A stretch of 64,000 nt of DNA from an uncultured Candidatus Marinamargulisbacteria bacterium (GCA_903910705.1 CAIWAN010000104.1:2453-66452), one strand, 5' to 3'. Positions 9,508-26,604 are shown, counted from the first letter of the stretch. Notes: generated by a model not told the origin, from the letters alone. Program-made: numbers and translations.

Positions 9508-9529
9508 ACAGTGGACTCCTTGAACGAAA

Positions 9530-10088: not shown

Positions 10089-10874
10089 ATGGAATGGAAT
10101 GTATTACTTGCGCCAATTATGCTGTTATTGATTCTATTTATCGGCGTTCCGGAAATAGTCAGGTCACCCCAAGAGTATCTTCATGTTCCAGCGTTAATGA
10201 TCGTTTTGGGTGGTTGTGTTTTCGCCATGTTATTTGGGACCAAATTTAAGAATACATGGAGTCTATTAAAGGCTTATTCGTTTATTGTTATTCCTCAAAA
10301 ACGAATGTCACCACCAGAGGCTATACGGATTATCGTTGAGCTCTCTCGAATTGCATTAACACAAGGGAAAGCGGCCTTGATCCCTGAAATAGAACGGATC
10401 AAAGATCCCTTTCTTCAATATGGGATTTCTTTGGTGGTAGAAAAGTTCCAAGAGCCCTTTATTCGAGCGGCTTTATACAATAGCATCGAAGAAATGCAAG
10501 AACGACATATGACCATCGTGGGTATAAATAGAAACACTGCCGTCGTTGCGCCTATTGCAGGTATGGTGGGAACCATTGTCGGACTCATTCAGGTATTAAG
10601 GAACATGGCCGATCCCTCGCAACTGGGTAAGGCCATGGCCTTAGGACTTATTGCAACCTTTTATGGTGGATTTCTTTCGGGTATGGTGTTTACACCTATC
10701 GCGCAAAAATTAAAGATCATGAGCGATGAAGAGGTTGTATTAAAGCGCATGATGGCCGAGGGGATTTTATTTATTTCAAAGGGCGAAGTTCCGATTAAAG
10801 TTGAAAAATATTTACTTAGTTATCTTCACATGGGTGATGTTAATAAGGCAGCTTTAAGCAATCAATCCGTATGA
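10089..10874 (+). CDS. motA: MotA/PomA-family stator (proton channel) protein
   Basis: 261 aa with 4 predicted TM segments. The C-terminal TM3-TM4 region IAGMVGTIVGLIQVLRNMADPSQLGKAMALGLIATFYGGFLSGMVFTPIAQKL is typical of the MotA/TolQ/ExbB superfamily. Overlaps the downstream motB-like gene by 4 nt. Confidence 0.8.
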   Translation: MEWNVLLAPIMLLLILFIGVPEIVRSPQEYLHVPALMIVLGGCVFAMLFGTKFKNTWSLLKAYSFIVIPQKRMSPPEAIRIIVELSRIALTQGKAALIPEIERIKDPFLQYGISLVVEKFQEPFIRAALYNSIEEMQERHMTIVGINRNTAVVAPIAGMVGTIVGLIQVLRNMADPSQLGKAMALGLIATFYGGFLSGMVFTPIAQKLKIMSDEEVVLKRMMAEGILFISKGEVPIKVEKYLLSYLHMGDVNKAALSNQSV

Positions 10875-11605
10875 GCGGTAGAAAAAAACACGCAGAGGAG
10901 CATGGCGAAAGCCCCATAGGTTTTATTATGTTTGGGGACTTGATGTCCCAGCTTCTATGCTTTTTTATTTTATTGTTTGTTTTTGCCTCACAATATGTTT
11001 CAAAAACACAAGGAACGACCTATGAGGATTTTCTTAAAAAGATAAGCGAGAACTTCAAAAAAGTGGTTGATGAAAAGCAAAAACCTCAAAGCCAGAAGCA
11101 AACGAAAGAGAGCGAATCTGTAAAACAGGAGACGGCAACGGATGCCAAAACAAAGATCGCCCAACAAATCCAGAAACTGGTAAATGATGAAAAACTAACC
11201 GAATATGTAAGTGTAATTGTGGAGGAAAAAAAGGTTCGAATTGTATTAAAACAACCTGTTCTATATGATTCAGGCTCGGCAGAACTAAAACCAGAAGCGG
11301 GATCAATCCTTGCCGATATTGGTGCGATCATTCAGAAGACGCGTAACCCCATTGATATAGAAGGACATACTGATAATATGCCGATCCATACAAGCAAATA
11401 TGATTCGAACTGGGACTTGTCTTTCGATCGGGCCTATTCCGTTATTAAGTTTATGGTTAAAACCGCCGGCATTTCACCGTTGCGCATGAAAACCGTGGGG
11501 TATGGAGAATATCGACCTCTTGCCCCCAATGATAGTGCTGAGAATCGTAGCAAGAATCGACGGATCGAAATCAATGTATTATTTAACGAATCGTTTCGAA
11601 ATTAA
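10871..11605 (+). CDS. motB: MotB-family stator protein with OmpA-like peptidoglycan-binding domain
   Basis: Single N-terminal TM helix carrying the conserved Asp (FIMFGDLMSQLLCFFILLF). C-terminal OmpA_C-like domain (HTDNMPIHTSKY...FDRAYSVIKFMV...RRIEI). 244 aa is MotB size rather than TolR/ExbD size. Confidence 0.8.
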   Translation: MSGRKKHAEEHGESPIGFIMFGDLMSQLLCFFILLFVFASQYVSKTQGTTYEDFLKKISENFKKVVDEKQKPQSQKQTKESESVKQETATDAKTKIAQQIQKLVNDEKLTEYVSVIVEEKKVRIVLKQPVLYDSGSAELKPEAGSILADIGAIIQKTRNPIDIEGHTDNMPIHTSKYDSNWDLSFDRAYSVIKFMVKTAGISPLRMKTVGYGEYRPLAPNDSAENRSKNRRIEINVLFNESFRN

Positions 11606-13902
11606 TCTTTTACCTCTTTTTGAATGGGGGTAAAGGACAACGCATCGGCCTTGATCCCAACATTAACGATAGAGTGGTCTGGGATCTTTCGATCAATAAG
11701 CAGGTCAGCAACAGCATCTTCGATAGAATCCTGAATCATTTTTCTAAGTGGCCTAGCCCCTTTATTGGCTTTGTACCCTTTATCGATAATCCAGTTTTTC
11801 GCTGGCAAATTAAGCTTAATGGTGATGTCTTTGCTTTTTAATCGGTGATTAACATCAGCGATGAAAAGATCCATTATTTCTCGAAGACTGTCTTTACTGA
11901 GGGCCTTAAAAATAATAATGTCATCGATACGGTTGATGAACTCAGGACTAAAAGACTCCTTCACTTCAGCAAGGATCTTTTCCTTCATTCGACCATAGTC
12001 TTCTTTTTCGTCCACGTTGGAGTTAAATCCAATGCTTTGATTGCTTTCGATGGTCTTAGCACCCACGTTGGAGGTCATAATGATAATGGTGTTTTTGAAG
12101 TCAACCATTTTCCCTGTTGAGTCGGTCAGTCGTCCATCGTCCATAACCTGTAAAAGTAAATTATTGACTTCAGGATGAGCCTTTTCAATTTCATCAAACA
12201 ATACGATCGAATAAGGTTTTTTCCTGACGGGTTCAGTGAGAAGCCCGCCTTCGTTATAACCGACGTAACCCGGAGGAGATCCAACTAGGCGAGAAATCGT
12301 GTGTTTTTCGGTGTATTCACTCATATCAATGCGTACAAAGGCATCTTCTCGACCAAAAACATAGAGCGCCAACTGTTTGGCCATCTCTGTCTTACCCACA
12401 CCACTAGGCCCAAGAAATAAGAACGAGCCAGTAGGTCGTCCAGGATCTTTTAGCCCTGCCTTTGAGCGTTTAATCGCCTTTGCTAGGGATTCGATCGCTT
12501 CGGTTTGGCCAATGACTTTTTTAGCGAGGTCACTAGCAATGTGTTTGAGGCGAGAGGCTTCAGATTCGGATAGATCACGAAGGGGTACCCCCGTCCACGT
12601 TGAGACGACCGTGATGATAGACTCGCGAGTTACAGTCACTGTTTTTTCTTTGCCGGCTTTTTTCTTGTTTAGTCGACTGGCTTCAAGCATTTCTGTTGAG
12701 GCGGCTTCATCAATCAAATCAACCGCTTTGTCCGGCAGTTGTCGATTTGTAATATATCGAGTGGAATAATATACAGCCGCTTCAAGAGCGTCGTCCAATA
12801 TCTCAACTTTGTGATAGTCTTCATAGCGCTTTCGGATTCCAAAAAGAATGTGCATGGTGTCCTCTTCGGAGGGAGGATCGATCATGATAGGCTGAAATCG
12901 ACGTTCAAGAGCGGCATCGCTTTCAATGCTTTTTCGGTATTCGTTTAAGGTTGTTGCCCCGATGCATTGGATTTCCCCTCGAGCGAGAGCAGGTTTCAAC
13001 ATATTGGCAGCGTCGAGAGCGCCCTCTGAATTGCCGGTTCCAATGATGGTATGGATTTCGTCTATGAAAAGAATGGTTTGTCGATCGTTTTTAATTTCAT
13101 CGATTATTTTCTTGATCCGTTCCTCAAATTCACCCCGAAATCGAGTCCCTGCGACTAAAAGCCCCAAATCAAGGGTAATGACCCGCTTGTTAAGCAGGTT
13201 GGGTGGAATTTCTCCATTCACGATCCGTTGGGCTAACCCTTCGATGATCGCTGTTTTACCCACACCCGCTTCACCCGTTAATACAGGGTTGTTTTTATTG
13301 CGCCGACTGAGAATTTGAAGGATACGTTTTACCTCAAATTCACGTCCGATAACAGGATCAAGCTTCCCTTCTTTGGCCAGTTGGGTTAGGTCAAGTCCGT
13401 AGAGATCAAGCGTAGGGGTTTGTTGACGTGACGTACTACCTTCTTCCTCAGATGCTTCAGCGTAATTTTCACCCAAGATGTCCAGAATGGCTGTGCGAAT
13501 CTGAAGAATATCGATGCTTGCTTCGAGAATGATCGCTGTAATGGCAGGAGAGGTGTCTTTTAGCACAGAAAGAAGGAGGTGTTCTACGCTTACATGGCTA
13601 TGACCCAACTGCCTTGCTTCATCCCATGCTTGAGAAAGAGTGACTTTGACTTGGGGTGAAAAGGGGATATTGTCAAGCTTGAGCGAGGATTTTTGTGTTT
13701 GCAGATGTTCATTGATGATGCTCCGAAGAATAGTCGGGTCAACTTTAATTTTTTGAAGGGCGGTTTGAATAATGGTGTCTTCAACTTTTAGGAGTCCATA
13801 AAGTAGGAGCTCGTTATTGATATAGGGAATCTTAAGCTTTTTGGCTTTCTCTTGGGCATACATAATGACCTGAATCGCTTTTTGAGTGAATCGTGAAAAC
13901 AT
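11602..13902 (-). CDS. ATP-dependent Clp protease ATP-binding subunit (ClpA/ClpC family, double AAA+)
   Basis: Clp_N repeats at the N-terminus. Walker A motifs [15 protein letters not shown] (D1) and [15 protein letters not shown] (D2). Short D1-D2 linker without a UVR motif, i.e. ClpA-like. 766 aa. Confidence 0.85.
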
Positions 13903-14078
13903 GGCAACTCCTTTAATTTAAAGTTCATCTTACAATAACCTTTTGTCTAATTCAAGAACACTATGTCGCGTAAGGCTTTGACGACGGCTAGTCGCTCGAG
14001 GCTTAGGTGCGCTTGACTTTTCAAAATTGGCTCGTGTATAGTCCTTAATATATTAGTCATTTTTAGGAGGTGAAAGGC

Positions 14079-14351
14079 ATGAACAAGGGTCAGCTAATTG
14101 ATGCGGTTGCTGCAAATACCAAGTTGAAAAAGACAGAAGTAGCAAAGATTTTAGATTCGCTTCTCGACAGTGTAAAGGTTGCACTTAAAAAGGGTAACGA
14201 TGTTTCATTGGTTGGATTTGGAACTTGGAAGAAAAAGAAAAGGGCAGCGCGGACCGGACGCAATCCACAAACCGGTAAGTCAATCAATATCCCTGCAAAG
14301 AATACAGTAGTGTTTACGGCAGGCAAGAAGTTGAAGGACGCAGTTAATTAA
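14079..14351 (+). CDS. hup: DNA-binding protein HU
   Basis: MNKGQLIDAVA...GFGTW...RNPQTGK is a canonical HU/IHF fold. GGAGGTG RBS 7 nt upstream of the ATG at 14079. Confidence 0.9.
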   Translation: MNKGQLIDAVAANTKLKKTEVAKILDSLLDSVKVALKKGNDVSLVGFGTWKKKKRAARTGRNPQTGKSINIPAKNTVVFTAGKKLKDAVN

Positions 14352-14361
14352 AACTTGATTC

Positions 14362-14393
14362 AAAATGCCTCGTTAATATTGCGAGGCATTTTT
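14362..14393 (+). terminator. rho-independent terminator downstream of hup
   Basis: A 9-bp perfect stem AATGCCTCG/CGAGGCATT with a 9-nt loop, followed by TTT. Confidence 0.6.
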
Positions 14394-14506
14394 ATGCCCA
14401 AAATGCTTACGTAAAAAACAAACATAAAACTATATGTTGACGACCCATGTTTCTGTTTGTTATGATTGATCCTGTTGGCCAACAAAATATACTCGGAGGT
14501 GTCAAA

Positions 14507-14848
14507 ATGTCTTCATATAATCGAATAACGTTAGTTGGGAATTTAGTACGGGATCCGGAGATAAAGAAGTTGAAAAGTCAAACAAAGGCCGATTTTACTC
14601 TTGCAGTTGAACGATACATGGGAAAAGATAATAAGCCGGTTACTGATTTCTTCACAATCGTGACATGGGGAAAACTGGCTGAAGTTTGTGGCTCCTACCT
14701 TAGTAAGGGCAAAAAGGTTCTTGTTGATGGACACATCCAGATCAGAACATATATGAAAGACAAAGAGCGTCAATGGATTACGGAGATTGTTGCTGAGAAC
14801 CTAAAGTTTTTGTCCGCAAAATCAGAAGAGGTTGCGGTAGCAAAGTAG
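14507..14848 (+). CDS. ssb: single-stranded DNA-binding protein (OB-fold), no acidic C-terminal tail
   Basis: MSSYNRITLVGNLVRDPEIK...FFTIVTWGKLAEV...GKKVLVDGHIQIRTY is an SSB OB-fold. GGAGGTG RBS upstream of the ATG at 14507. Ends ...SEEVAVAK, so it lacks the usual D/E-rich tail. Confidence 0.8.
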   Translation: MSSYNRITLVGNLVRDPEIKKLKSQTKADFTLAVERYMGKDNKPVTDFFTIVTWGKLAEVCGSYLSKGKKVLVDGHIQIRTYMKDKERQWITEIVAENLKFLSAKSEEVAVAK

Positions 14849-14902
14849 AAATGTCTTTGAATTCCTCTTTTTGTGTGGGAAAAGAGGATTCAAAATATCC
14901 AA

Positions 14903-14928
14903 AATTATTGTCCCTTAGAAGTTTCTCT
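14903..14928 (+). promoter_or_regulatory. putative sigma70-type promoter (TTGTCC-N-TATACT) for the FliG-like operon
   Basis: TTGTCC ... TATACT with about 17-18 nt spacing, ending roughly 17 nt before the ATG at 14945. Sequence inspection only. Confidence 0.25.
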
Positions 14929-14944
14929 GTGTATACTTTGATTT

Positions 14945-16432
14945 ATGCGACGATCAATTATTAAATGGGGAAGCCTTGTTGTCATATTTATGACCCTTGC
15001 TTTTTCCCAAAATCTGCAGACCTATCAACAACATATTGAAGAGACCGTTCAATCGGCCCTCGATAGAATGTTGGGCGCAGGTCGATCGATAGTCTATATT
15101 TCTCTCATCTCAGAAGGTAATAAGTGGGAGATAAATTATACAAAAATCCCTGATATTCCCGGAATGTCTGATTATCAAGGAGGCGGAAAAGGCCAAAGTA
15201 CAGTTATGCCCGGTATTCCTTCATTAAAGTTTTTGTCTGGCGGGGGAAATGAGGGGGCGCCTCTTAACTATGAGGTGGTCGAACGTAGTCCGGTTGTCGC
15301 CAATAAAGATGTTGTTATTATTATGGATGCTAAGGTCAAGTTAGGTGAAATAAGAGCCGTACGGCAGTTTATTACTGGTTTTTTGAATTTAGATGAACAA
15401 AAGGGCGACAAGCTCTCAATATTAAAACAAAAATTTACCGATCTTTCGGCCGGTGGAAAAGAATCCATTTCCAAACAAAAACTTACTGCAAAAAACAAAC
15501 TGCCTCTTTCAACGATCATCCTTCTTTTAGTAGGACTTGCAGTTCTAGTTGCTATGCTTGTTCTTGTGTTGAAGTCGATGGGACGAAAAAAAGTAATAGA
15601 GGGATCGTCAGCCGAAACAGCGACGCAATTAGCCAATACGGAGGCCACGATTCCGGAAAAAACGGCTGATGAACTCCGAAAAGAAGAAGAAGATGCGCAA
15701 AAGAAAATGGAAGAACAAAAACTGATAGCCATGCGTAATGAAGTGTTAGGAAATGGGGCCAGATATTTTACTTTTGTTGATGATGAGAACACGCACAAGC
15801 TAAAGTTCTTATTGCAGATCAAAATTGCGCTTCAACAAGCGACACCACGAACGGTTGCGGTTGTTATGAGTTGTTTGCCCTCGAACTTAGCAGCATCAAT
15901 ATTGATTGAGTACCCAGTTAAAATTCAGGCAGAGATCATGAACAATATTTTAACCTTACAGCATTACCCAGAAAATGATCTGAGGCAGTTAGAAGAAGAG
16001 ATTAAGAACAGCATAGACTTTTTGTTTGGTGGAAAATATCGCTTAAAACAGGTGATGGATCAATTGTCAGGCGAGGCAAAGAAGCAGCTTCTTTCTTTGG
16101 TCGCTCGCCAAAACCCACCGATAGCTGATGAGCTTAACACGTTGGTTATTCTTTTTGAAGATATTTTAGAGCTAGATGAAAGCACGGTTGCGCGAATATT
16201 TGGAGATATTGATACCGAGATCATCGCGACATCGTTGGTTCATATGGATTCGGGCTATCAACGAAAAGTTCTCGAAACGCTTCCAAAAGGAGTGCAAGCC
16301 ATGGTAGACCAGTGGTTGAGCTTAAAAGGAAATACGGCCTCTCGAGTTGATGTTGACCAAGCCCGACAAGAAGTTATTCAGTACGCGCAAAATTTAGAAA
16401 AAGAAGGGTTTATTTTGATTAATCATGAGTGA
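14945..16432 (+). CDS. membrane-anchored FliG-like protein with FliF/YscJ-type periplasmic ring-building-motif domain
   Basis: Signal/TM1 MRRSIIKWGSLVVIFMTLAF. Periplasmic region resembles a secretin/FliF ring-building motif (SALDRMLGAGRSIVYISL ... VVANKDVVIIMDAKVKLGEIRAVRQFITGFLNLDEQKGDKLSIL). TM2 LPLSTIILLLVGLAVLVAMLVLVL. The cytoplasmic part has FliG-middle-like (AVVMSCLPSNLAASILIEYPVKIQAEIMNNILTL) and FliG-C signatures (ILFEDILELDE matching the MFxFEDL motif; C-terminus DQARQEVIQYAQNLEKEGFILI matching FliG ...EEAQQKI...RRLEE.GEIVI). Confidence 0.55.
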   Translation: MRRSIIKWGSLVVIFMTLAFSQNLQTYQQHIEETVQSALDRMLGAGRSIVYISLISEGNKWEINYTKIPDIPGMSDYQGGGKGQSTVMPGIPSLKFLSGGGNEGAPLNYEVVERSPVVANKDVVIIMDAKVKLGEIRAVRQFITGFLNLDEQKGDKLSILKQKFTDLSAGGKESISKQKLTAKNKLPLSTIILLLVGLAVLVAMLVLVLKSMGRKKVIEGSSAETATQLANTEATIPEKTADELRKEEEDAQKKMEEQKLIAMRNEVLGNGARYFTFVDDENTHKLKFLLQIKIALQQATPRTVAVVMSCLPSNLAASILIEYPVKIQAEIMNNILTLQHYPENDLRQLEEEIKNSIDFLFGGKYRLKQVMDQLSGEAKKQLLSLVARQNPPIADELNTLVILFEDILELDESTVARIFGDIDTEIIATSLVHMDSGYQRKVLETLPKGVQAMVDQWLSLKGNTASRVDVDQARQEVIQYAQNLEKEGFILINHE

Positions 16433-17255
16433 AAAATCCTTCAATCTTTTTCAGAAGCGAGAAGCTAAATCCCAATCGGTTGACGAAGCATCGAAATCAG
16501 CGGACATCCGAAGTGTTTTTCAAGAAAGTGGCAAGGAGGAGACACTAGCCCTTCAATACTTTAGCTATATAACGAAAGACAATACTTATCATACTGCCCA
16601 TGTGTTAAATAAAATCATCAAAGCGAAGCCCGAAAACTTAAAATATGCCTGCCTCGTTATTTCGTACGTTGACCCTGAGTTAGCGCAACGACTATTAGGG
16701 GAGTTTCCGGATGAGATCCAAGTTCATGTTGTTTCTGAATTGTTATCCTTGATCCAATATAGCAAGGCAGAGATCGAGAATTTTGATAAAATTCTGCGTC
16801 GATTGTTGACCGAACAATTTGGCGGGAAATATGTTGTGGCTAAGCTACTAGAAGAGCTTGATATAGAAAAAAAGATGCTTCTAATGCAAGAGTTCTCTAA
16901 ACGATATCCAGACGCAGCAACTTTATTTAGACGGATCATGATCTTATTTGAGGATCTACTCTCACTAAATGAGGTAAATTATCAGCGAATTTTTTCTGAA
17001 GTATCAAACGAAATATTATCCATGGCTTTTTGCAATCATTCCGTTGAACAACAAACTAGACTCTATAATATTCTTCCAAAAGGGCTAAAAAATATTGTTC
17101 AACAAGGTATAGAGCTTGGAAGGAAAAAATACTCAAGAACTGATATCAATAAGGCTCAACAATATATTATTGAGTACGCAAAACAACTCGAAAAGGATGG
17201 GTTTATTGATCCTATCTTAAAGGATGAAAACGCAAAGCCCCCGACATCAAGCTAG
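16425..17255 (+). CDS. soluble FliG-like paralog (FliG middle plus C-terminal domains)
   Basis: 276 aa. Contains ILFEDLLSLNE (the MFxFEDL-type motif) and the C-terminal DINKAQQYIIEYAKQLEKDGFI. Overlaps the upstream gene by 8 nt (ATGAGTGA), which suggests translational coupling. Confidence 0.55.
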   Translation: MSEKSFNLFQKREAKSQSVDEASKSADIRSVFQESGKEETLALQYFSYITKDNTYHTAHVLNKIIKAKPENLKYACLVISYVDPELAQRLLGEFPDEIQVHVVSELLSLIQYSKAEIENFDKILRRLLTEQFGGKYVVAKLLEELDIEKKMLLMQEFSKRYPDAATLFRRIMILFEDLLSLNEVNYQRIFSEVSNEILSMAFCNHSVEQQTRLYNILPKGLKNIVQQGIELGRKKYSRTDINKAQQYIIEYAKQLEKDGFIDPILKDENAKPPTSS

Positions 17256-17328
17256 CAGTGCCTTGCATTTGCTGCTCTATGTCGGTAAACTGGGGCGTAG
17301 TGTTGGTGAATAGGCACAGGGGTAAAAG

Positions 17329-20300
17329 GTGAGAAAATCTTCATGTCATTTCAGGGTAAGGTTCTTCGCACTTGTCGTGGGAATATTGCCGTTTGCCTTC
17401 ACCACGATTACAGACCTTTCCTTTTTTTCAGGAGGCACACAAACACAATATGTTCACGTGATGCAAAATCAGTCTATTGGGTTTAAAGATAGTGCAAACC
17501 AAGTAACCATTAATCTTTCGGATGAGATTCAATTTAAATTGAATTATTCCACAAAGCAATACACAGTATTAAAAGGAAGCGATTGGTTTGATGGAAACCC
17601 AACGATCACTTGGAACAATTTGGCCGAAATTAGTATTAACTACCGCCTAAAATGGACGAACCCTTTTGCTCAAAATATGCCAATTCTCGTGACGATAAAT
17701 GATAACGAAGCCTCGATTACGACATCAATCTTGACGTATAATCAAGAATTTGTTCTTACGGCTTTAACACTTAATGCTGATCAGCAATTCTTTGTCCAAG
17801 ATGCAAACGGGCCTTGGATAAAAGGGGGCATTGGGTCAGGAGAAGGTGTTGTTTGTTTGGGGAACCTCGCCTATAAATATGATACAACTTTGCATCCCTT
17901 GAAAGATGTATCCATGTGTCTATATTTTGACGGAGTGCCTGATGGCTCGCAAGTAAATGTGGGAACAGATGGAAAATTCCAATTTAATAATTTTTTGGTT
18001 CCTATATCTGCAACCGGAGTGAGCAAGAACTGCGAAATTAGGGTTGATTTGGCTGGCGCTATCGGAAGCGCAATCCTTTCATCAACAGTCATACCCAATA
18101 CCTTTAATGTTCAAATTGATAATATGCCACCAACATGGACTGAAACGAGCCTTATCCTTGTATCTGATAATAATTATGAGAGTCAAGGTCGACTGAAGCC
18201 CGACGATGGGTATTATGGCCAACTGACAGTTTCGGTTAAAGTAGACAAATTTAATCTGGTTACAGATAATGCTGGCGCAGGAGTCTCCACGATTCTTTCC
18301 TTTCGTGCCGAACAAGTCACGGTCGAAGGGCTAGACGTAACCACGAGCATTCAAACACGTGAAGGTGTTCGTGACATCCAAGTACTCATTTTTGATAAAG
18401 TCCATAATTCTGCAAGCTTGAGTGTACGCGTAAGTGTTGATGTCACTCCGCCTAGTTTGTTTTCTGTTTATTTGGGGCAGGACAATGATACTACAATCAA
18501 TCAAACCCTTCCTGCCGTTGGGTGGTTTAATGATGAAACCGTGAGTTTTTCGTGGACGACTCCTGCTGATTTTTCCCTTCGAGAATGGCCCTATCAAGTA
18601 AAAAACGACCCGTCTCCAAACTGGTCAGCTGAACAGGAAGGCATTTTATCAGATAATATGTTCCAGTTGACGCGAAATACAAATCAACTTTACATCGAAG
18701 CCGGAGGAAATCTTGCCAAAACCATTAAGGTTAGAGCCGTTGATCGTGCGGGCAATATTCGAGAGGCGAGTACAACCGTTTTTGTTGATAACACACCACC
18801 GACACTCAATGTTTTTAGGCTAAAACCTGATTTAACGCTTGAGGCTGATAGCCTAGAACTTCCCGAGGCAACGCCAAATATCTGGTACAACAATGGGGAT
18901 GAAGTCAATTGGACGTGGTCAGCAGAGGATAATGGTGAACTCCCGCAGAAACCCTATGCGTATTATTATAATAAGGGAAATCAGAATGTATTGACCTCAG
19001 ACTTTACCAATTTATCGGACATCATTATTCCTTCTGATGAAGCCCCAACAGGGAACATGTTAACCCTTTTAATTCGAGACAAAGCGGGGAATGTTGCCAT
19101 TTCAACGAAAAATGTTTTCGTGTCCGAAACGGCTCCCATCATGAGCTATAAAGACATTCTTTTTTTGTCCGACATGACGGATAATGGAGGGGATGGGGTT
19201 CTTGCTGAATCCCTCTGGTATGATCAAACGACATTAGATTTTGTCACAACGGTAAATCTTCAAAGCTTCTCCGCTCCCCTTTCCAAAATTTATTTCAAGC
19301 GGAGCATTGATAGCACGAAGAATATCTTGGATATATCAACCGTGCAGACGATAACTATTTCGAGCTTTGAGATCATATCCAATAGTCGAACAGATATAAC
19401 GTTTGAATTTGTGGATCGAGCGGGTCGTGGAAGCCAAGTTTTTAAAAATGTTGAGTCAACAACAATCGTGCCTATTAATCTAAATGCTGTCCTTGTCAGC
19501 GACAAAGACAGCAGTTTACAGCAAGATGGGATAGATCCCGAGCCAGGTTATTATGATAGTCCAACGATTAGTATCACTTGGCAAAAACCAAATTATTGGG
19601 GACGGCTTCGCGACCAACCGTACTCAACTAATATTAATGGAGAAGGCTGGGGAACCGAGTTCGGGACAGAGGGCCTGCAGCTATCTCTTACGCCAAACCA
19701 TGCTTTTTCGTTAATCATTCGTGCAGCAGATCGCGCTGGAAATGTGGTCACGAATCAACTTTTTGTGACGGTTGATGTCGAGGCCCCAACTGGTTCTTTT
19801 GAGTTTATTATTTCAGAGGATGTCCCCCATAATGGGGGGGTAACCCCTGACATCGGTTGGTATTCTAATCATTGGATCAAAGGTCAATTTCTGTCTGAAA
19901 ATGTGACGGATTTTTTTGGTCTTCGTGAAGCCCGATATTTTGTAAAAAATTTAGAGGTACCTTATGGGCAGGGATCATCCTCTTCTTTAAATGTTGAGAC
20001 TTTTTCTAATGAACGAGGCAGTGTTATCAATTATGTTTCGGGTGCAATTGCCGATCATGCGGGCAATATAATTTCACTCCAAAAACCGGTGTATGTTGAC
20101 ATGACCTCCCCTGGAGCTTTTTCTACAGAGATTTTGCCAGATGCGACTGACAATGGTTCCGATGGATTTTTCCCAGAGGTTGGCTGGTATGATGAAGAGG
20201 CGGTCAATGTTAAGTGGATGCATTCCAATGATGATGCGCAGTTGGCGGAAAAACCTTATAGACTTTCCAGCACGATGCGAGATTGGACCCCGTTCCAACT

Positions 20301-23300
20301 GGCACCTTTTTATGACGGACTTCCTGTTTCTGAGGGTGGCGATATGACGCGAGATGTATATGTTCAGGTCAGAGATAAAGCAGGTAATCTAACAACAGAA
20401 AGTATGACGATAAGAATTGATATTACCCCTCCTGAGATTCTGACGTTTAATATTCTTAATCAAGCACAAACCGTGGTTACTTGGGCTGAAAATAATGGAG
20501 CGGTCTGGCTCGATCAAAATTATTCTCTTCCTCTTCCATCTTGGTATAACACGTCAAACGTTACAATAGCATGGGTAACACCCTCGGAGAATGGGCAGTT
20601 AACGGATCGCCCCTATCGATATCGAGCGAAGTACGGACAAACATCTTTCTCAGAGTGGGTAAGTGGCGATGTGTTTTCTGCTGATATTCACGTATCAGCT
20701 AATGAAAATTCGCCTAATATAATTTATTTTCAGGCCCTAGATCGGGCAGGGAACTTGGCGGTTATAACTCGTTCGATCAACGTCGATTTCTCGCCCCCAT
20801 CAATGAGTGTTCAATATGTGGCGGTAAGCAACGATGTAATCAGAGAGTTTATCCGACCTTATGTCACAACCGGAGACGTTCTTTGGATAACCTTAAATAG
20901 CCAAGAAGTTCTTATTGTCACACCAACGCTTGTTGTTAATAATGGGGTTTATCCCTACGACTTTGTTGAATTTGTTGCGCTAGAACGAGCGTCCGATTAT
21001 GTCTGGACAGCGAGCATCGACCTAAAAAAGATAAATGGAGCGGATGGGTACTTCCTCTATCGTGACGGATCCTATCAATTGGATGTCAAAGCATATGATA
21101 ATGCAGGGAACAAGACCAATACCCTTAATGGGGATGTGTCTTTTGTTGTGAAAAATGACTCTGCACCACCAGGAGAAAATTTTAGTCTCTATGAGTATAT
21201 TGATCTTACACGTAGTGATACCTATACAAGGCATGAAATGGTCGAATTTTCTGTGACGATCGACTCTAAAATCGCCGAGCTCTATCTAACTGAACGGGCA
21301 GACCTCTCGACTTTTGAGAGAGTTAAGTCGTCACAGTCCTCTTTTCAAAGAATATCTAGGGATGCAGCTAAACTCTATACGTTTCAGCCTGACCTGAATA
21401 CGAATGAAGTTATGGATGGCATGAAAACAGTATTTTTATGGACAGTCCTTGAAAACGGGATCGGCTCCGATGTATCGGTAAGTGCAAGGATCCGATATGA
21501 TCATACGGCACCTTTCGTTAGTATTGAGCCTGATTATATGGCTCTTCAAGGTAGAACAGATGGGGTTTCTCTGTCGATAGGAACGTATCATTGCAGGATG
21601 ACACTAAGTTCAAATATTGTCGGGTATAGAGAGGAGGCGATTGAAACGCCCTCGTGGAAACTGCTTCTTCCTGCCGTAGGTGCAACGTTTATAACGGTTG
21701 ACCTAGTGCCCAGCTTAGAAGATCAATCCGATCGAAGCAAGTGGGTCGCTACGTATAATTCAGCTCTCTCAACGGCCAGTGGAAATGCCATATTCCTCAT
21801 AGCGGTAACCGATAATGCCTTAAACCCTACAAACCAAATAAAAGAAGGGGAACGCTTTAACATTGACTTACAAGCAGCAGGGAATCCTTCTTTTTCGGTA
21901 AGATCATTAGATGGTCGACAAGGGTATACTCGGTTCTTAACGGTGAATATTGAGATTCAGAATGATAGTTCTTCGACGACATACAATTATTATAAAATAA
22001 CGGAGGGCTTGCGTTATCGTCCAAGCTTTGAAGCCGTGAATACCCCCTGGGAAAGTTCGCCAACCATTGTAAGTTTTAGAATTGATGAATCGTTCCCACC
22101 AGATGAAGTTCTTGAAGGAGCGAAAACGATTTATGTCTGGAGTAGAATTAACTTTTACCTCAACCCTGAGATCATCGAAAGGCGTATCACTTATGACAAA
22201 ACCCCCCCCAGCCTCAATATTCTCGTTGCGCCTTATCTAAATAAGGCAGACAGTTCAGTCCCAGAATCCTTAAGAGTCACAATGTCGGTAAGCGAAGAAC
22301 TAGAAACAACAAATAGTCAGCTTCTCTTATTGAAAGATGAGAGCAGAAGTACACTCAGTACCTCTAATTGGGTTTTTGACAAGAAAAGTGGAGGTGTTTA
22401 TACCTATGTATCAACCCTAGATATACTCGGAGCGAACAAGTTTACTAATATATCAATTCAAACGATGCTTAGTGATTGGGCAGGCAATACAACGAACCAC
22501 ACACAGGCTGTTCGCCAATTGCTTTCCATTAAAGAACTTAAAGACGAGGTTCCTTCTGCAGCTTCCTTTGTAGAGCAAGGAAAACCCGACTTTCTGGTGA
22601 TGTCTTGTGTGCTTTCAGCGAATGATTTGGCTATTCACTTGCGGGGAATACGGGTTCAGTCAGCTGGATCATATCAGCCCATCGATTTTAATAATTTCAA
22701 GGTGTTTTTAGATGGGAATAATGATGGGCAATTCAATTATGATTCTGGATATGGGTTTGATTCTCTCAAAGGAATGAGTTCAGGTGGAATTGATCAGACG
22801 GGCATTGTTTCAATTTCATTTCTTAGTGAAGAAATGATCCCAAGCAATTCTTCAAAACGTTTTTTTATTGTTGCTGATGTCAGCGTTGGGGCGGTTCAAC
22901 GGGATACCTTTACGATGAAGTTTTTATCATATAACGCGTTTGAAGTTGCAGATAACGAAATGGTTGACTATGCAAATGCACCCAACGAATTTCGAACAAA
23001 ACAGATTATGATCGTTAAGACGATCAGTGGGGTATATTTGGTTCCGCAAATCGGCTCACAAAGTTCCGCCAACAGGGTCACACAAAATGTAAATCGAGGT
23101 GGATCCAACCAGCTTCTTAATAAGTTTACTCTGTATACAGACAAAGGCGTTGCTCTCTGGAGCGGAATAAAACTCCGATATAGCGGAACCATAGGAACCG
23201 AACACCTTAATCTTTCCTTGTATAAGGATACAAATCTAAATGGCCTTTTTGAACTAGAAGCGGATGGTCAGGTTAGCTATCCCAGTAATCGGTTTGAGGT

Positions 23301-25059
23301 TGGACAGTCAGTAATGACACTCAATCTCAAAGACAATCAGCTTATCAATGCGATCGACTCGGACAAAATGACTTATTTCCTTGTGGGGGATCTCTCGTTG
23401 GATAGCCCCCTATCCACTACGTTTGATCTAGCGATAGTAAGTAGTAATGAAGTGCTTGTTGAGACACCCAATCAAGTAGTTTCGTCTCTACTACCCTATA
23501 GAACGGCTGAATTTAAAGTACAAGATTATGTTTCAAAAATCGTAATGACTGTTGCAAACAACCCCCAACAAGATGTTTTTCAGGGAGATAGTATTATTCT
23601 TCAAAAAATGTTGTTTGATCTCGACTTGGCTAGCGCAGCACAATTTACCTATATTGATTATTATTTTGATGGGACGGCCCTGATTGCGGACTTTTTGGCT
23701 GATGGTAATGATTCAGGGATTGCTCTGTATGGGTTATCTTCAAATATGACCCTGACTCAAGATTTCGAAAGAGATGTATTGCTCGGGGCAACAAAGATTG
23801 AGGCAACCAATAGTTGGTCAGATGGAAATCATCGCCTTAGGATTAATTTCTTGACGGAACAACCCCTTGTAACTCACAACTTATTTGCCCTAGTGGTTAC
23901 GCTAAATGGCGGGTCAACACCCGGCCGGCAATTTAGTTTTACCTCCCATCTCGAAGTGGTTAGTCAAAATCCCTATATAGGTGTTGTAGGTGCCGTCGCA
24001 AATAAGGATCAAACCTTTTCTACGAATACCGTAGAGATTATTAGTGAGTTTAATCCAAGTCAACCCAAGGTTAGCATGAACTATTATAATCGTTTCCCCA
24101 CAAAACTACCTCTTTCGTTTGATACATACACAAAATATGGATTCATAAATCGCACATCCCTTCATGTTAATGATGTTGTTGGCTATAGCTATTTAATAGG
24201 AACCATTCCGGGGCTAGGCGATGTAGCTTCTGAGCCAAAAGTTGATCTGATCGAGCCGTCCCCTATTAAAGTGGATGTTCAGGCAGACATACAAAATATT
24301 AGCCTATTGCCGGATCAACTTTACTATTTAACGTTACGGTCGATCGCAACTCGATCGGATAATTCAGGAACGTTATATTCTAAGCCTGTGGTCATTCCTT
24401 TTATGACAGACTTTTCTCCACCGCACCTCCCCAATTACCCGATAGATGTTCAAATTGATGGGACAAAACATTTGTTAAGCTGGGAAGATTTTTCTGACCC
24501 TGTCTCGGGAATAAAACGTTTTTATATAGAAGAAAAGAGTAACTATATTCCCTCGTGGAACCTAATAACCGTTTTGCCGCCAGTGAGCGATCCTATGCAA
24601 CCTAAAATTAGCGAGAGATATTATTCTACTCAGTCCAGAAAACCAAACATGTCCTATACCTATCGTGTTAAAGCCGAGAATCAAGCGGGGTTGATGAGCG
24701 ACTATATTTACTCAACGCCCCTTACAACCGCGGATACAGATAAAGTTCTCAGTAGTGTTAGTAACTACCCCAATCCTTTTAATTCAAGAAAGGAAAAAAC
24801 CACATTATTTTATTATTTGAATCAAGATACAGGTATCGAGGTGCGAATCTACGATTCAATAGGTCATTTTGTGCGAAAATTTAACTATACAGCTGGAATA
24901 ATTGGCAAGACGGTAAAGGGTGATTGTACAATGGAGTGGGATGGCAAGAATGAGCAGGGTGAATATGTTGCAAAGGGTGGATATTTTGTTGTTATTGAGG
25001 CGCCAGACACAAAGGGTGAGGATAAAAAAATTGTTCGTATGGTTGGGGTGATCCACTAA
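17329..25059 (+). CDS. giant (2576 aa) repetitive cell-surface protein with T9SS/FlgD-Ig-type C-terminal sorting domain
   Basis: N-terminal signal-like MRKSSCHFRVRFFALVVGILPFAF. At least 11 repeats of roughly 115 aa bounded by DRAGN...V(D/N)x(T/S)(P/A)P junctions (DNMPPT, DVTPPS, DNTPPT, DVEAPTG, DMTSPG, DITPPE, DFSPPS, DHTAPF, DKTPPS, FSPPHLP), each with a GWY...W...PY core. The last roughly 90 aa (NYPNPFNSRKEKTTLFYY...IYDSIGHFV...EWDGKNEQGEYVAKGGYFVVIEA) match the Por secretion tail / FlgD Ig-like family. Confidence 0.7.
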   Translation: MRKSSCHFRVRFFALVVGILPFAFTTITDLSFFSGGTQTQYVHVMQNQSIGFKDSANQVTINLSDEIQFKLNYSTKQYTVLKGSDWFDGNPTITWNNLAEISINYRLKWTNPFAQNMPILVTINDNEASITTSILTYNQEFVLTALTLNADQQFFVQDANGPWIKGGIGSGEGVVCLGNLAYKYDTTLHPLKDVSMCLYFDGVPDGSQVNVGTDGKFQFNNFLVPISATGVSKNCEIRVDLAGAIGSAILSSTVIPNTFNVQIDNMPPTWTETSLILVSDNNYESQGRLKPDDGYYGQLTVSVKVDKFNLVTDNAGAGVSTILSFRAEQVTVEGLDVTTSIQTREGVRDIQVLIFDKVHNSASLSVRVSVDVTPPSLFSVYLGQDNDTTINQTLPAVGWFNDETVSFSWTTPADFSLREWPYQVKNDPSPNWSAEQEGILSDNMFQLTRNTNQLYIEAGGNLAKTIKVRAVDRAGNIREASTTVFVDNTPPTLNVFRLKPDLTLEADSLELPEATPNIWYNNGDEVNWTWSAEDNGELPQKPYAYYYNKGNQNVLTSDFTNLSDIIIPSDEAPTGNMLTLLIRDKAGNVAISTKNVFVSETAPIMSYKDILFLSDMTDNGGDGVLAESLWYDQTTLDFVTTVNLQSFSAPLSKIYFKRSIDSTKNILDISTVQTITISSFEIISNSRTDITFEFVDRAGRGSQVFKNVESTTIVPINLNAVLVSDKDSSLQQDGIDPEPGYYDSPTISITWQKPNYWGRLRDQPYSTNINGEGWGTEFGTEGLQLSLTPNHAFSLIIRAADRAGNVVTNQLFVTVDVEAPTGSFEFIISEDVPHNGGVTPDIGWYSNHWIKGQFLSENVTDFFGLREARYFVKNLEVPYGQGSSSSLNVETFSNERGSVINYVSGAIADHAGNIISLQKPVYVDMTSPGAFSTEILPDATDNGSDGFFPEVGWYDEEAVNVKWMHSNDDAQLAEKPYRLSSTMRDWTPFQLAPFYDGLPVSEGGDMTRDVYVQVRDKAGNLTTESMTIRIDITPPEILTFNILNQAQTVVTWAENNGAVWLDQNYSLPLPSWYNTSNVTIAWVTPSENGQLTDRPYRYRAKYGQTSFSEWVSGDVFSADIHVSANENSPNIIYFQALDRAGNLAVITRSINVDFSPPSMSVQYVAVSNDVIREFIRPYVTTGDVLWITLNSQEVLIVTPTLVVNNGVYPYDFVEFVALERASDYVWTASIDLKKINGADGYFLYRDGSYQLDVKAYDNAGNKTNTLNGDVSFVVKNDSAPPGENFSLYEYIDLTRSDTYTRHEMVEFSVTIDSKIAELYLTERADLSTFERVKSSQSSFQRISRDAAKLYTFQPDLNTNEVMDGMKTVFLWTVLENGIGSDVSVSARIRYDHTAPFVSIEPDYMALQGRTDGVSLSIGTYHCRMTLSSNIVGYREEAIETPSWKLLLPAVGATFITVDLVPSLEDQSDRSKWVATYNSALSTASGNAIFLIAVTDNALNPTNQIKEGERFNIDLQAAGNPSFSVRSLDGRQGYTRFLTVNIEIQNDSSSTTYNYYKITEGLRYRPSFEAVNTPWESSPTIVSFRIDESFPPDEVLEGAKTIYVWSRINFYLNPEIIERRITYDKTPPSLNILVAPYLNKADSSVPESLRVTMSVSEELETTNSQLLLLKDESRSTLSTSNWVFDKKSGGVYTYVSTLDILGANKFTNISIQTMLSDWAGNTTNHTQAVRQLLSIKELKDEVPSAASFVEQGKPDFLVMSCVLSANDLAIHLRGIRVQSAGSYQPIDFNNFKVFLDGNNDGQFNYDSGYGFDSLKGMSSGGIDQTGIVSISFLSEEMIPSNSSKRFFIVADVSVGAVQRDTFTMKFLSYNAFEVADNEMVDYANAPNEFRTKQIMIVKTISGVYLVPQIGSQSSANRVTQNVNRGGSNQLLNKFTLYTDKGVALWSGIKLRYSGTIGTEHLNLSLYKDTNLNGLFELEADGQVSYPSNRFEVGQSVMTLNLKDNQLINAIDSDKMTYFLVGDLSLDSPLSTTFDLAIVSSNEVLVETPNQVVSSLLPYRTAEFKVQDYVSKIVMTVANNPQQDVFQGDSIILQKMLFDLDLASAAQFTYIDYYFDGTALIADFLADGNDSGIALYGLSSNMTLTQDFERDVLLGATKIEATNSWSDGNHRLRINFLTEQPLVTHNLFALVVTLNGGSTPGRQFSFTSHLEVVSQNPYIGVVGAVANKDQTFSTNTVEIISEFNPSQPKVSMNYYNRFPTKLPLSFDTYTKYGFINRTSLHVNDVVGYSYLIGTIPGLGDVASEPKVDLIEPSPIKVDVQADIQNISLLPDQLYYLTLRSIATRSDNSGTLYSKPVVIPFMTDFSPPHLPNYPIDVQIDGTKHLLSWEDFSDPVSGIKRFYIEEKSNYIPSWNLITVLPPVSDPMQPKISERYYSTQSRKPNMSYTYRVKAENQAGLMSDYIYSTPLTTADTDKVLSSVSNYPNPFNSRKEKTTLFYYLNQDTGIEVRIYDSIGHFVRKFNYTAGIIGKTVKGDCTMEWDGKNEQGEYVAKGGYFVVIEAPDTKGEDKKIVRMVGVIH

Positions 25060-26604
25060 ATGAAGCCGATCTACATCACAACCCCCATTTATTACGTAAA
25101 CGATGTTCCACACATTGGGCATAGCTATACGACCATTTTGGCGGATATTTTATCTCGATATTATAAAATGACGGGTCATAACGTGTTTTTTCTTACGGGG
25201 ACGGATGAGCATGGCCAAAAGATTGAAAAAGCAGCTGAAGCAAAGGGGTTAAGTCCGCAAGAGCTCGTGGATCAAGTGGTTCTTCGATTTAGAGCGCTCT
25301 GGGATGTGCTAAATATCAGCTGCGACCGATTTATTCGAACAACCGACCCAGATCATAAAAAGGTCGTTCAAGATGTGTTTAAGCGAGTTTTCGACAAAGG
25401 ATATATTTATCTGGGTGAATACGCTGGATTATATTGTCGACCCTGTGAAACGTATTATACCGAAACACAGGCTGAGAATGGGCTTTGTCCTGAGTGCAAA
25501 CGTGAACTGACATTGCTTAAAGAAGAAGCATTCTTTTTTAGACTCTCCGCGTTTGAGAGCAATCTCCTCGAATATGTCGAGAAGTCTCCCGAATTTGTGC
25601 TTCCCTTAACACGTCGAAATGAGGTGATGAGTTTTATTCGAAGTGGCTTAAATGATCTTTGTATTACGCGCTCTGCCATTAACTGGGGAATAGAAATTCC
25701 AGAAATTGGTGTCGTGACTAAACAGAAACATTATATCTACGTTTGGTTTGATGCGTTGTTGAATTATTTGAGCGGAATTAAATATGGTCAAGACCCTGAA
25801 TTCTTTCGTCAATATTGGCCCGCAACTATCCAACTTCTTGGAAAGGATATCCTAAAATTTCATGCGGTTATTTGGCCTGCAATGTTGATGGCGCTTGATC
25901 TCCCCCTTCCTGAACATGTTTTTGGACATGGATTCATCTATCAAAGTGGCGAGAAAATGTCAAAGTCTAAGGGCAATGTTCTTGATCCCTATGTCCTGAT
26001 TGAGTCGTATGGAGCAGATGCTTTTCGATATTTTTTAGCCAGAGAAGTGGTTATGGGACTAGATGGTTCCTATAGTGATGAGAACATGAAGCAACGCTTT
26101 AATAGTGACTTAGCAAATGATTGGGGTAATCTTATCAATCGTACACTCAACATGATGAAACAATATTTTGATGGAGTTGTTCCTCAAACTGAAATGGTGT
26201 TCGGATTTGATGAATCGGCGGATGGATTACGATCAACCGCCGTTCTCTTGTTTGATAAGATTAAAGAGTTAATGGGTGAGTTTAAGTTGTCACACGTCCT
26301 TGAAGAGATCTTCTTGGTCATTAGGCAGTCTAATAAATATATCGAAGATCAAGCCCCATGGGTACTTGCCAAAAAAGGTGATATTGATCGGCTAGGGTAT
26401 GTAATGATTCAAGTTCTTGAGGCTATTCGCCTTGTTTCTCTGTTTTTGTTCCCCTTTATGCCCTCAACGGTCGAACGAGTTTATAAACAACTTCAGATCT
26501 CAGTTGATTTTACTCACGTAGACCCTTTGTTCTTTGATTGGGATTACTTCAAACCGAGCATGAGCTTGGGTGAGCCGGAGCCGCTGTTTCCCCGAAAAAT
26601 ATGA
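25060..26604 (+). CDS. metG: methionyl-tRNA synthetase (short form without C-terminal tRNA-binding extension)
   Basis: HIGH motif PHIGHSYTTILADIL. Zn knuckle CRPCETYYTE...CPECK. KMSKS motif. 514 aa. Confidence 0.9.
   Translation: MKPIYITTPIYYVNDVPHIGHSYTTILADILSRYYKMTGHNVFFLTGTDEHGQKIEKAAEAKGLSPQELVDQVVLRFRALWDVLNISCDRFIRTTDPDHKKVVQDVFKRVFDKGYIYLGEYAGLYCRPCETYYTETQAENGLCPECKRELTLLKEEAFFFRLSAFESNLLEYVEKSPEFVLPLTRRNEVMSFIRSGLNDLCITRSAINWGIEIPEIGVVTKQKHYIYVWFDALLNYLSGIKYGQDPEFFRQYWPATIQLLGKDILKFHAVIWPAMLMALDLPLPEHVFGHGFIYQSGEKMSKSKGNVLDPYVLIESYGADAFRYFLAREVVMGLDGSYSDENMKQRFNSDLANDWGNLINRTLNMMKQYFDGVVPQTEMVFGFDESADGLRSTAVLLFDKIKELMGEFKLSHVLEEIFLVIRQSNKYIEDQAPWVLAKKGDIDRLGYVMIQVLEAIRLVSLFLFPFMPSTVERVYKQLQISVDFTHVDPLFFDWDYFKPSMSLGEPEPLFPRKI

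Follow-up and report, generated by a model that had tools for sequence, protein, structure and literature searches.

FliG and the MotAB stator of the flagellar type are regarded as specific to the flagellum, and a locus that combines them with the gene of a giant exported protein raises the question of what machine they serve there. The locus was found in a 64-kb stretch of DNA (hereafter the window) from an uncultured Candidatus Marinamargulisbacteria bacterium (GCA_903910705.1, CAIWAN010000104.1:2453-66452), where motA and motB, two fliG-like genes and the giant gene lie between positions 10,089 and 25,059. An earlier note on this DNA had proposed that their products form a non-flagellar rotary machine at the cell surface. 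All of the results presented here are computational, and consist of domain homology, architectures and gene neighbourhoods. By homology, the locus encodes an RBM3/collar-transmembrane-FliG_MC hybrid, a second FliG(MC) protein and a 5:2 ion-driven MotAB stator of the flagellar type. That the region constitutes the inner-membrane core of a non-flagellar rotor-stator machine, derived from or related to the flagellum and serving giant surface proteins, is in our judgement an even bet.

The genes under discussion, with positions counted from the first nucleotide of the window, are the following:

10089-10874, plus strand: motA, flagellar-type stator A subunit (PF01618, 1.8e-21), referred to below as the window type
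10871-11605, plus strand: motB, with MotB_plug (5.5e-8) and OmpA (3e-20) domains, overlapping motA by 4 nt
11602-13902, minus strand: clpA/C
14070-14351: hup
14447-14848: ssb
14945-16432, plus strand: hybrid, putative FliF(RBM3)-transmembrane-FliG(MC) fusion of 495 aa, with FliG_M and FliG_C after a signal peptide, a periplasmic domain and a transmembrane helix
15008-15502, plus strand: periplasmic RBM3/collar-like domain of the hybrid
16425-17255, plus strand: FliG2, soluble FliG(MC) paralog of 276 aa (FliG_C 4e-15, FliG_M 1.2e-6), overlapping the hybrid gene by 8 nt
17329-25059, plus strand: giant Sec-exported protein of 2,576 aa (Big_13, Big_3_2 and FlgD_ig matches), starting 73 nt after fliG2
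24760-25056, plus strand: C-terminal domain (CTD) of the giant protein, resembling type IX secretion system (T9SS) type-A domains and the FlgD Ig-like domain
41792-42361, minus strand: candidate TPR partner of 189 aa with a signal peptide, directly downstream of the next gene
42380-43612, minus strand: PorV/PorQ-like (FadL/UPF0164-type) beta-barrel of 410 aa, candidate outer-membrane component

The gene set and positions given in the earlier note were all recovered, with every open reading frame and domain as described there, and its figures for the overlap of the FliG paralogs and for the gap to the giant gene were both correct. The remaining open reading frames of the window are housekeeping genes or sensors, and none of them encodes a further flagellar component, be it export gate (FliPQR/FlhAB), rod, hook or filament.

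A natural fusion of FliF and FliG domains

The hybrid begins with a signal peptide (residues 1-22, approximately), followed by an RBM3-like domain (23-165), a transmembrane helix (about 187-210), a charged coiled linker, FliG_M (295-357) and FliG_C (388-491). The same layout was seen in an alignment of 23 homologues, in which a signal peptide precedes a conserved domain in the periplasm, some 145 residues long, one transmembrane helix with basic residues after it, the charged linker and the two FliG domains. In AlphaFold2 models the periplasmic domain folds as alpha-beta-beta-[insert]-beta-beta-alpha-beta, and its inserted loop bears an invariant PGIPSL[RK]F motif.

The Pfam scan of the window hybrid gave no YscJ_FliF match. 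Aligning the N-terminal domain family with canonical FliF in hhalign, however, gave a probability of 87% (E 3.8e-6) over FliF residues 241-414, and Pfam YscJ_FliF_C was matched directly by distant members of the family (P0341, 2.7e-11). A Foldseek search with the whole hybrid model matched both FliG_MC and FliF RBM3/S-ring structures. The part of FliF represented in the hybrid is thus the ring-building domain, RBM3 with the beta-collar. With its 145 or so periplasmic residues and single transmembrane helix, the hybrid has neither RBM1 nor RBM2, nor the second transmembrane helix and the FliG_N-binding C-terminal tail of FliF.

Membership of the FliG family rests on FliG_M, FliG_C, the Gly-Gly linker and the MFxF-type hinge, all of which were recognised by Pfam or by alignment with Thermotoga maritima FliG. 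The C-terminal half of the hybrid matched T. maritima FliG_MC at 6e-23, with the Gly-Gly linker (GGK) and the MFxF-like hinge (ILFEDxL) aligned. FliG2 matched it at 4.5e-18, is 28% identical to the MC part of the hybrid, and possesses neither an N domain nor a transmembrane helix. No Pfam match to FliG_N (PF14842) was obtained for either protein, and their NCBIfam TIGR00207 scores were 65 and 59 bits for hybrid and FliG2, against a cut-off of 226.7. FliG2 directly follows the hybrid in all type-1 loci that reach that far.

Taken together, sequence comparisons and models identify the hybrid as a predicted natural FliF(RBM3)-FliG(MC) fusion, which bears out the view of the earlier note that a membrane-anchored, rotor-like hybrid of a FliF ring-building domain and FliG is encoded here. 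Fusions of FliF with FliG have been engineered in Salmonella and Vibrio (PDB 8z4d/8z4g). Those are laboratory constructs of full-length FliF and full-length FliG, whereas the window fusion is natural, minimal (RBM3 only, FliG_MC only) and belongs to a large family of its own. The engineered fusions form rings (PDB 8z4d), and we count this in favour of a ring-forming hybrid.

Conservation of the locus in Margulisbacteria

To reconstruct gene orders in relatives, the encoding contigs were looked up, GTDB species genomes were scanned and BLAST was run locally. Named homologues assign the window to Candidatus Margulisbacteria, and the closest of them, from a Marinamargulisbacteria metagenome-assembled genome (MAG), is 87% identical. 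The hybrid-fliG2-giant unit is kept in at least 9 GTDB species of Margulisbacteria, with differing flanks and three different placements of motAB, so that the reading of the FliG-like genes and the giant gene as one unit holds across relatives. The arrangements were as follows (loci are numbered L001 onwards):

L001/L008/L027, L009 (GWF2_35_9), L010 and L011 (Termititenax sp.): hybrid-fliG2-motA-motB-giant, in four lineages
Window, L003, L006 and L025: motAB between khpA/tRNA and clpC, 3.3 kb upstream, with hybrid-fliG2-giant contiguous
L012 (Riflemargulisbacteria) and L005: hybrid-fliG2-giant, with motAB not in the available flank (none within 10 kb in L005)
L007 (40% identity): hybrid-fliG2 only

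The two placements of motAB are complementary. Loci with motAB in the operon have an empty khpA-clpC site and vice versa, and no locus has both. The giant gene follows either fliG2 or motB in L001, L003, L004, L005, L009, L011 and L012. Co-location by pure chance was rejected, since the genes are found together again in other arrangements and other lineages.

Between ssb and the hybrid gene of the window lies a 12-bp inverted repeat (GAATTCCTCTTTT...AAAAGAGGATTC, 14859-14892, just past ssb), and after it, directly upstream of the hybrid gene, a promoter-like TTGTCC-18-TATACT (14908-14937). A separate transcript may begin at these elements; the promoter and terminator scans yielded consensus matches only. 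At the other end of the unit, the stop codon of the giant gene directly abuts the start codon of metG with zero gap (25057-25062). Since metG, tatD and a T2SSF gene, which overlap one another, continue in the same direction, the giant gene stands within a co-directional string of housekeeping genes.

The fusion family outside Margulisbacteria

A word-indexed search returned 26 relatives of the hybrid, all of them from Margulisbacteria. The restricted distribution that this suggested was overturned when 1.84 billion representatives (clusters at 50% identity) were searched exhaustively with the hybrid family in HMMER; this gave 3,390 matches, 818 of them at E<1e-10 and 72 at E<1e-30. An RBM3-like N-terminal domain, two hydrophobic segments and FliG_MC were present in 118 of the best 150 clusters, and by these sequence features the fusion architecture is a large uncharacterised family. 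Taxonomic spread was read from cluster names, and most clusters are unnamed; the named members come from Margulisbacteria, a Marinamargulisbacteria single-amplified genome (SAG) and Elusimicrobiota, of which protein P0358 has the RBM3-transmembrane-FliG_MC architecture. A metagenome scan with the family alignment recovered seven loci and added little context. More distant hybrid genes were found in these settings:

L029 (4899-8762) and L030 (4143-7988), Marinamargulisbacteria SAGs, and another MAG: TPR-hybrid2-motA-motB
L019 (6984-11497): two KaiC/RecA-like ATPases (one with a receiver domain)-TPR-hybrid, no motAB within 10 kb
L021 (Margulisbacteria, GWD2_39_127 type): CheY-hybrid-FliG2-197-aa protein-Kelch giant (>3,700 aa)
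L031 (1-18551; 2.9-Mb contig, GC 56%): 16,931-aa CTD protein-PorV/Q-TPR fusion-hybrid-motA-motB

The module in L029 and L030 is paralogous to that of the window. It comprises a 481-aa RBM3-transmembrane-FliG_MC protein and a third type of MotA, and has neither FliG2 nor a giant protein. Upstream of the L021 genes, in divergent orientation, lie genes for a small CTD protein and for a barrel resembling PorQ (8e-11). Near the L031 genes, one more PorV/Q protein is encoded together with a further CTD protein and a PilZ-domain protein, and both PorV/Q neighbours exceed the family cut-off of 90 (116.5 bits for the fused barrel and 119.4 bits for the other). Hybrid-like genes of distant, unrelated lineages thus again adjoin motAB, TPR proteins, PorV/PorQ-like proteins and giants with the same CTD. 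No flagellar genes were found beside the hybrid at the loci examined, save a hook-like gene about 9 kb away in two of them. GldL/GldM (PorL/PorM), PorK/PorN and Sov/SprA were likewise without a match among the open reading frames of the window or the neighbours examined.

The giant protein and candidate outer-membrane partners

In the giant protein, a signal peptide at the N-terminus is followed by no fewer than 8 Ig-like repeats, marked by a DxAGN motif every 110 aa or so, and at the C-terminus by a beta-sandwich domain, the last 100 residues being the best-conserved part of the protein. Scanned alone, this CTD matched the CTD of PorU (1.4e-8), the CTD of PorZ (1.1e-6) and, equally well, the Ig-like domain of FlgD (1.2e-8). 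The domain is conserved across phyla, with 38% identity (E 2e-20) between the window CTD and that of the 16,931-aa protein in L031. A classical Sec signal peptide was present in all eight orthologues, as is the case for T9SS cargo (PMC12618676), and for this reason the possibility that the giant protein is a type III substrate was rejected. The Sec signal and the CTD-like domain agree with the description of a giant exported protein in the earlier note, while its naming as an adhesin is presumptive.

The PorV/PorQ-like barrel of the window matched the NF033709 family at 3.8e-20. With the N-terminal part of the 515-aa PorV/Q-TPR fusion of L031, the gene of which lies directly upstream of hybrid-motAB, it shares 36% identity (E 2e-58). 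The adjacent TPR protein matched the TPR C-terminal part of the same fusion (E 2e-14), and also the TPR proteins encoded ahead of the hybrid in L019 and L029. Since barrel and TPR protein correspond to the two parts of the L031 fusion, the pair appears to be a split version of the fused gene and may be the outer-membrane module of the system.

The stator and the torque helices

Among solved structures (PDB), the best relatives of the window MotA were Vibrio PomA (4e-38) and flagellar MotA (6e-32). NCBIfam likewise ranked the PomA/MotP/MotA models first (4e-43), with a score of 147 against an equivalog cut-off of 341. The features of a FIT-type stator are present, namely a four-helix transmembrane MotA with an enlarged cytoplasmic domain, and a MotB with a plug, a transmembrane Asp and an OmpA-like domain; the Asp is that of a conserved GDLMS motif in the transmembrane segment. 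A survey of MotAB evolution regards the clade of such stators as flagellar (PMC12505986). The window motA is 73-95% identical to the motA in the same position in L003, L006 and L025. A C-terminal signature, [KR]G[ED][VI]P[IL]KVE, is common to the three MotA types of Margulisbacteria and missing from PomA. The positions of PomA R88/E96 are occupied by L/I in the window type and by Q/E in the operon type.

On the rotor side, the torque helix reads KGVQAMVDQWL in the hybrid and KGLKNIVQQGI in FliG2, with the equivalents of E. coli FliG R281/D288/D289 changed. In their place the torque helix bears a motif of the family's own, [DE]Q[WF], whose conservation across subfamilies implies that an interface has been maintained. 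The EHPQ motif for FliM binding is replaced by ATPR in the hybrid and by ENLK in FliG2. The earlier note had held that the parts that touch each other in the flagellar motor are all present; MotA and the FliG C-domain are indeed there, but the canonical charged contact residues are not conserved. The torque helices of the hybrid and of FliG2 do not differ even between lineages in which the adjacent MotA proteins share about 35% identity, an unexpected observation if these residues contact the stator.

Flagellar genes in carrier and related genomes

In L003 (272-1135) and L009 (1822-2670), at a distance of about 9 kb from the cluster, a FlgE/FlgG-like gene (282-287 aa) stands by itself between a permease gene and lepB, with no flagellar neighbour. 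Its homologues in Margulis/Saganbacteria are usually found within flagellar operons, two forms of which were examined:

L014/L015: flagellar operon fliK-flgD-flgE-fliM-fliN-fliOPQR-flhB(-flhA)
L013 (9406-16831) and L017 (802-8279): divergent flagellar-type operon FlgD-like-FlgE-like-FliMN x2-FliO-FliP-288-aa protein-FliQ-FliR-FlhB

The operons of L013 and L017 have a short FlgE/G-like protein and two FliMN proteins that consist of FliMN_C only, without a FliM domain, and their FliP is about 65% identical to other FliPs of Margulis/Saganbacteria. Between fliP and fliQ they encode a conserved secreted protein of 286-288 aa. This protein was considered as the missing RBM1/2 of FliF and rejected, as it is beta-rich and secreted and has no family match.

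The FlgE-like protein P0043 is encoded on contig JBAXBT010000113.1 of GCA_037141875.1, the Riflemargulisbacteria MAG that also holds the hybrid cluster L012, and its gene heads the FliMN-FliOPQR-FlhB operon on the identical contig L017. The statement of the earlier note that no other flagellar genes are present therefore stands for the window but fails beyond it, as this carrier has a hook-like FlgE gene. A FliP search aimed at the export gate of carriers returned 7,993 matches, saturated at 70-84% identity, which could not be traced to genomes. Free-living Elusimicrobiota have been reported to possess many motAB and fliG homologues and no structural flagellar genes; in that preprint the genes were taken from KEGG counts and their role was called unclear (10.1101/2022.07.08.499144).

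A proposed machine and its alternatives

In the machine that we propose as the most parsimonious model, the rotor would consist of the hybrid, with or without FliG2. The hybrid would polymerise into a ring resembling the MS-ring, and its FliG domains, probably interleaved with FliG2, would form a cytoplasmic torque ring turned by MotAB units at the expense of an ion gradient. The periplasmic collar with its PGIPSL[RK]F loop would transmit work across the envelope to the giant Sec-exported protein, whose T9SS-like CTD would be handled by the PorV/PorQ-like outer-membrane barrel and the TPR protein. As its output, the machine would export the giant protein, attach it to the surface or move it. 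The window motAB, shifted 3.3 kb upstream across clpC-hup-ssb, is taken as the stator of the machine in the window lineage. We infer ring formation, rotation, coupling and the roles of the window motAB and of the PorV/TPR pair from these homologies and neighbourhoods; the pairing of this motAB with the hybrid is a matter of inference, since the window MotA type differs from the in-operon type. The comparison across relatives suggested in the earlier note showed that hybrid, giant and motAB genes do co-occur, and a dedicated stator-rotor-giant-protein machine with T9SS-like outer parts is therefore favoured, but one carrier MAG was found to have flagellar genes. The observation made in that note is thus confirmed and its interpretation partly supported.

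Several findings weigh against the proposed machine. At least one carrier genome also appears to have export-gate, FliN-like and hook-like flagellar genes, and ordinary flagellar operons occur in related Margulis/Saganbacteria, so a flagellar role is conceivable. The canonical charge pairs between stator and rotor (FliG R281/D288/D289; E. coli MotA R90/E98) are not conserved. Window-type and operon-type MotA (L001/L009/L010/L011) are only 33-37% identical, as distant from each other as from Vibrio PomA, and the torque helices of hybrid and FliG2 (window 16280-16320 and 17090-17130, and their L009 equivalents) are nevertheless identical across both MotA lineages, which lowers confidence in the window motAB as a simple relocated orthologue. 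As to the outer parts, the CTD reached 22.7 bits (7.2e-5) with the T9SS type-A sorting model TIGR04183, just below its cut-off of 23, and the PorV/Q-like gene of the window is 17 kb away and its product, at 72.7 bits, is below the family cut-off of 90. Finally, the co-direction of the genes in the window tells little by itself, because the giant gene runs straight into metG-tatD.

A strongly remodelled flagellum would account for some of these findings. In this lineage of Margulisbacteria the RBM3-FliG fusion and FliG2 would then replace FliF and FliG, MotAB would be the flagellar stator, and the giant protein would form some accessory structure in the periplasm or on the outside, for instance a disk, sheath or scaffold. 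MotAB has the plug and the OmpA domain of a flagellar-type stator, the RBM3/collar portion of FliF encircles the rod, the FlgE/G-like gene lies near the cluster in L003 and L009, and GCA_037141875.1 combines the cluster with the FlgE-like gene of a FlgD-like-FlgE-like-FliMN x2-FliOPQR-FlhB operon (L017; L013 is alike). We nevertheless consider this explanation unlikely. The hybrid is without FliG_N and without RBM1/RBM2, which house the export gate, and the altered EHPQ motif concerns FliM binding. The operon partner is a Sec-exported CTD giant and no flagellar protein; the same class has a paralogous module, TPR-hybrid2-motAB; and homologous modules elsewhere adjoin PorV/Q-like and CTD giant genes, never flagellar genes. 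In Elusimicrobiota, fliG and motAB homologues occur without flagellar structural genes (10.1101/2022.07.08.499144). The loss of the canonical charges in the torque helix and in MotA could point instead to a non-rotary use, in which a hybrid ring would be a static membrane platform, with MotAB acting like TolQR/ExbBD as a proton-driven energiser, or tethering to peptidoglycan, so that the giant protein is secreted or anchored in the envelope, or in which the FliG domains would be a regulatory docking site. CheY, PilZ and KaiC-like neighbours at some loci are consistent with this, and the Tol, Ton and Agl systems employ 5:2 motors as linear or local energisers (PMC12505986). Yet with its plug, its OmpA domain and its enlarged cytoplasmic torque domain the stator belongs to the FIT type, and it is matched best by PomA/MotA, not by ExbB/TolQ. 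FliG_M and FliG_C are both kept, together with a Gly-Gly linker and an MFxF-like motif, and the [DE]Q[WF] motif is conserved as well. A non-rotary use therefore seems to us improbable, to about the same degree as a remodelled flagellum.

A further explanation concerns only the window motAB, which might be unrelated to the FliG genes and serve another machine, so that hybrid-fliG2-giant alone would be the unit here. The equal distance of window-type MotA from the operon type and from PomA, its separate transcription (convergent with clpC), the unchanged torque helices beside different stators and the cluster without nearby motAB in L005 would fit such a case. Against it, motAB keeps its place by clpC-hup-ssb-hybrid in four contigs (window, L003, L006 and L025), these are exactly the lineages whose operon has no motAB, and the C-terminal signature unites the three Margulisbacteria MotA types to the exclusion of PomA. 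We regard this explanation as quite improbable.

Returning to the proposed rotor-stator machine, the association of RBM3-transmembrane-FliG_MC proteins with motAB, TPR proteins, PorV/Q-like proteins and CTD giants is hard to explain by chance because it is recurrent and independent of lineage, and it is not easily explained by an ordinary flagellar role. We tentatively suggest, at slightly less than even odds, a widespread and undescribed class of envelope machines, in which a minimal FliF(RBM3)-FliG rotor with MotAB powers the export, anchoring or surface movement of CTD giants via PorV/PorQ-like proteins. Such machines would occur in Margulisbacteria, Elusimicrobiota and other uncultured lineages, and would be either descendants of the flagellar motor or relatives of a pre-flagellar ancestor.

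Comparison with known systems

The proposed machine shares with the flagellar motor the homologous RBM3/collar, FliG_M and FliG_C domains, a flagellar-type MotA, a MotB with plug and OmpA domains, and the expected logic of an ion-driven stator turning a FliG ring on a FliF-type ring. It differs in that RBM1/RBM2, the FliF C-tail and FliG_N are missing and the remaining domains are joined directly by one transmembrane helix, in the presence of a second FliG(MC), and in that EHPQ and the charges of R281/D288/D289 and MotA R90 are not kept. The locus is without export-gate, rod, hook or filament genes, and the operon partner is a Sec-exported CTD giant.

The T9SS and gliding machinery of Bacteroidota (GldLM/PorLM motor, PorV/PorQ, CTD cargo, SprB adhesin) has apparent counterparts in the present system, namely a giant Sec-dependent candidate cargo, a beta-sandwich CTD resembling PorU, PorZ and type-A CTDs, PorV/PorQ-like barrels beside or near the motor genes, and a 5:2 ion motor genetically linked to surface proteins. 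In contrast, the motor here consists of MotAB and a FliF/FliG rotor and not of GldL/GldM; PorK/N, Sov/SprA and PorU were not seen in the window or the loci studied; the carriers (Margulisbacteria, Elusimicrobiota and others) stand outside the FCB group, to which the T9SS is considered specific; and the CTD and the PorV-like protein of the window are just under the curated cut-offs. The proposed machine may thus be functionally analogous to the T9SS and SprB gliding driven by GldLM/PorLM, but with a FliF/FliG rotor.

Other systems resemble it in part. The Elusimicrobiota genes are homologues of fliG and motAB without structural flagellar genes, and P0358 has the same architecture as the hybrid, but the FliF-RBM3 fusion and the links to CTD giants and PorV/Q-like proteins are not described in that preprint (10.1101/2022.07.08.499144). 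The Agl-Glt gliding machinery of Myxococcus and the non-flagellar flagellar type III secretion system of Lysobacter are likewise cases in which parts of motility motors or flagella are reused for non-flagellar surface functions. However, Agl employs TolQR-type motors and no FliG, and in Lysobacter the export-apparatus genes are retained and not the rotor-stator module. Literature searches on motility in Margulisbacteria, on natural FliF-FliG fusions and on PorV or CTD proteins with FliG/MotAB found no description of the system in the library searched.

Other features of the window

A second large Sec-exported protein, of 1,664 aa, is encoded on the minus strand (28441-33435); it has weak phage-tail-like matches and no CTD. 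Its gene is convergent with the T2SSF gene mentioned above (27359-28444, plus strand), an orphan PilC/GspF-like gene that overlaps tatD. The tatD-T2SSF adjacency is present in L003 too. Upstream of motA, khpA (9271-9678, minus strand) is called as 135 aa, against 77 aa in all relatives; the long form is probably due to a false upstream start overlapping rpsP.

Implications

If the proposed reading is true, the locus represents a new kind of envelope machine, and if it belongs to a flagellum instead, it represents a striking new variant of the basal body. It would be a new rotary or ion-driven machine only if it serves giant surface proteins and does so in organisms reported to be without flagellar structural genes. 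In that event the old question of what use a rotor and stator might have had outside or before the flagellum would have a concrete and testable object. The 495-aa fusion is also an attractive minimal system for structural study of torque generation. The sorting of proteins by T9SS-like CTDs and PorV would extend beyond the FCB group. Among uncultured groups, Termititenax ectosymbionts, marine Margulisbacteria and magnetotactic Elusimicrobiota would gain a candidate explanation of how they attach to surfaces or move without flagella.

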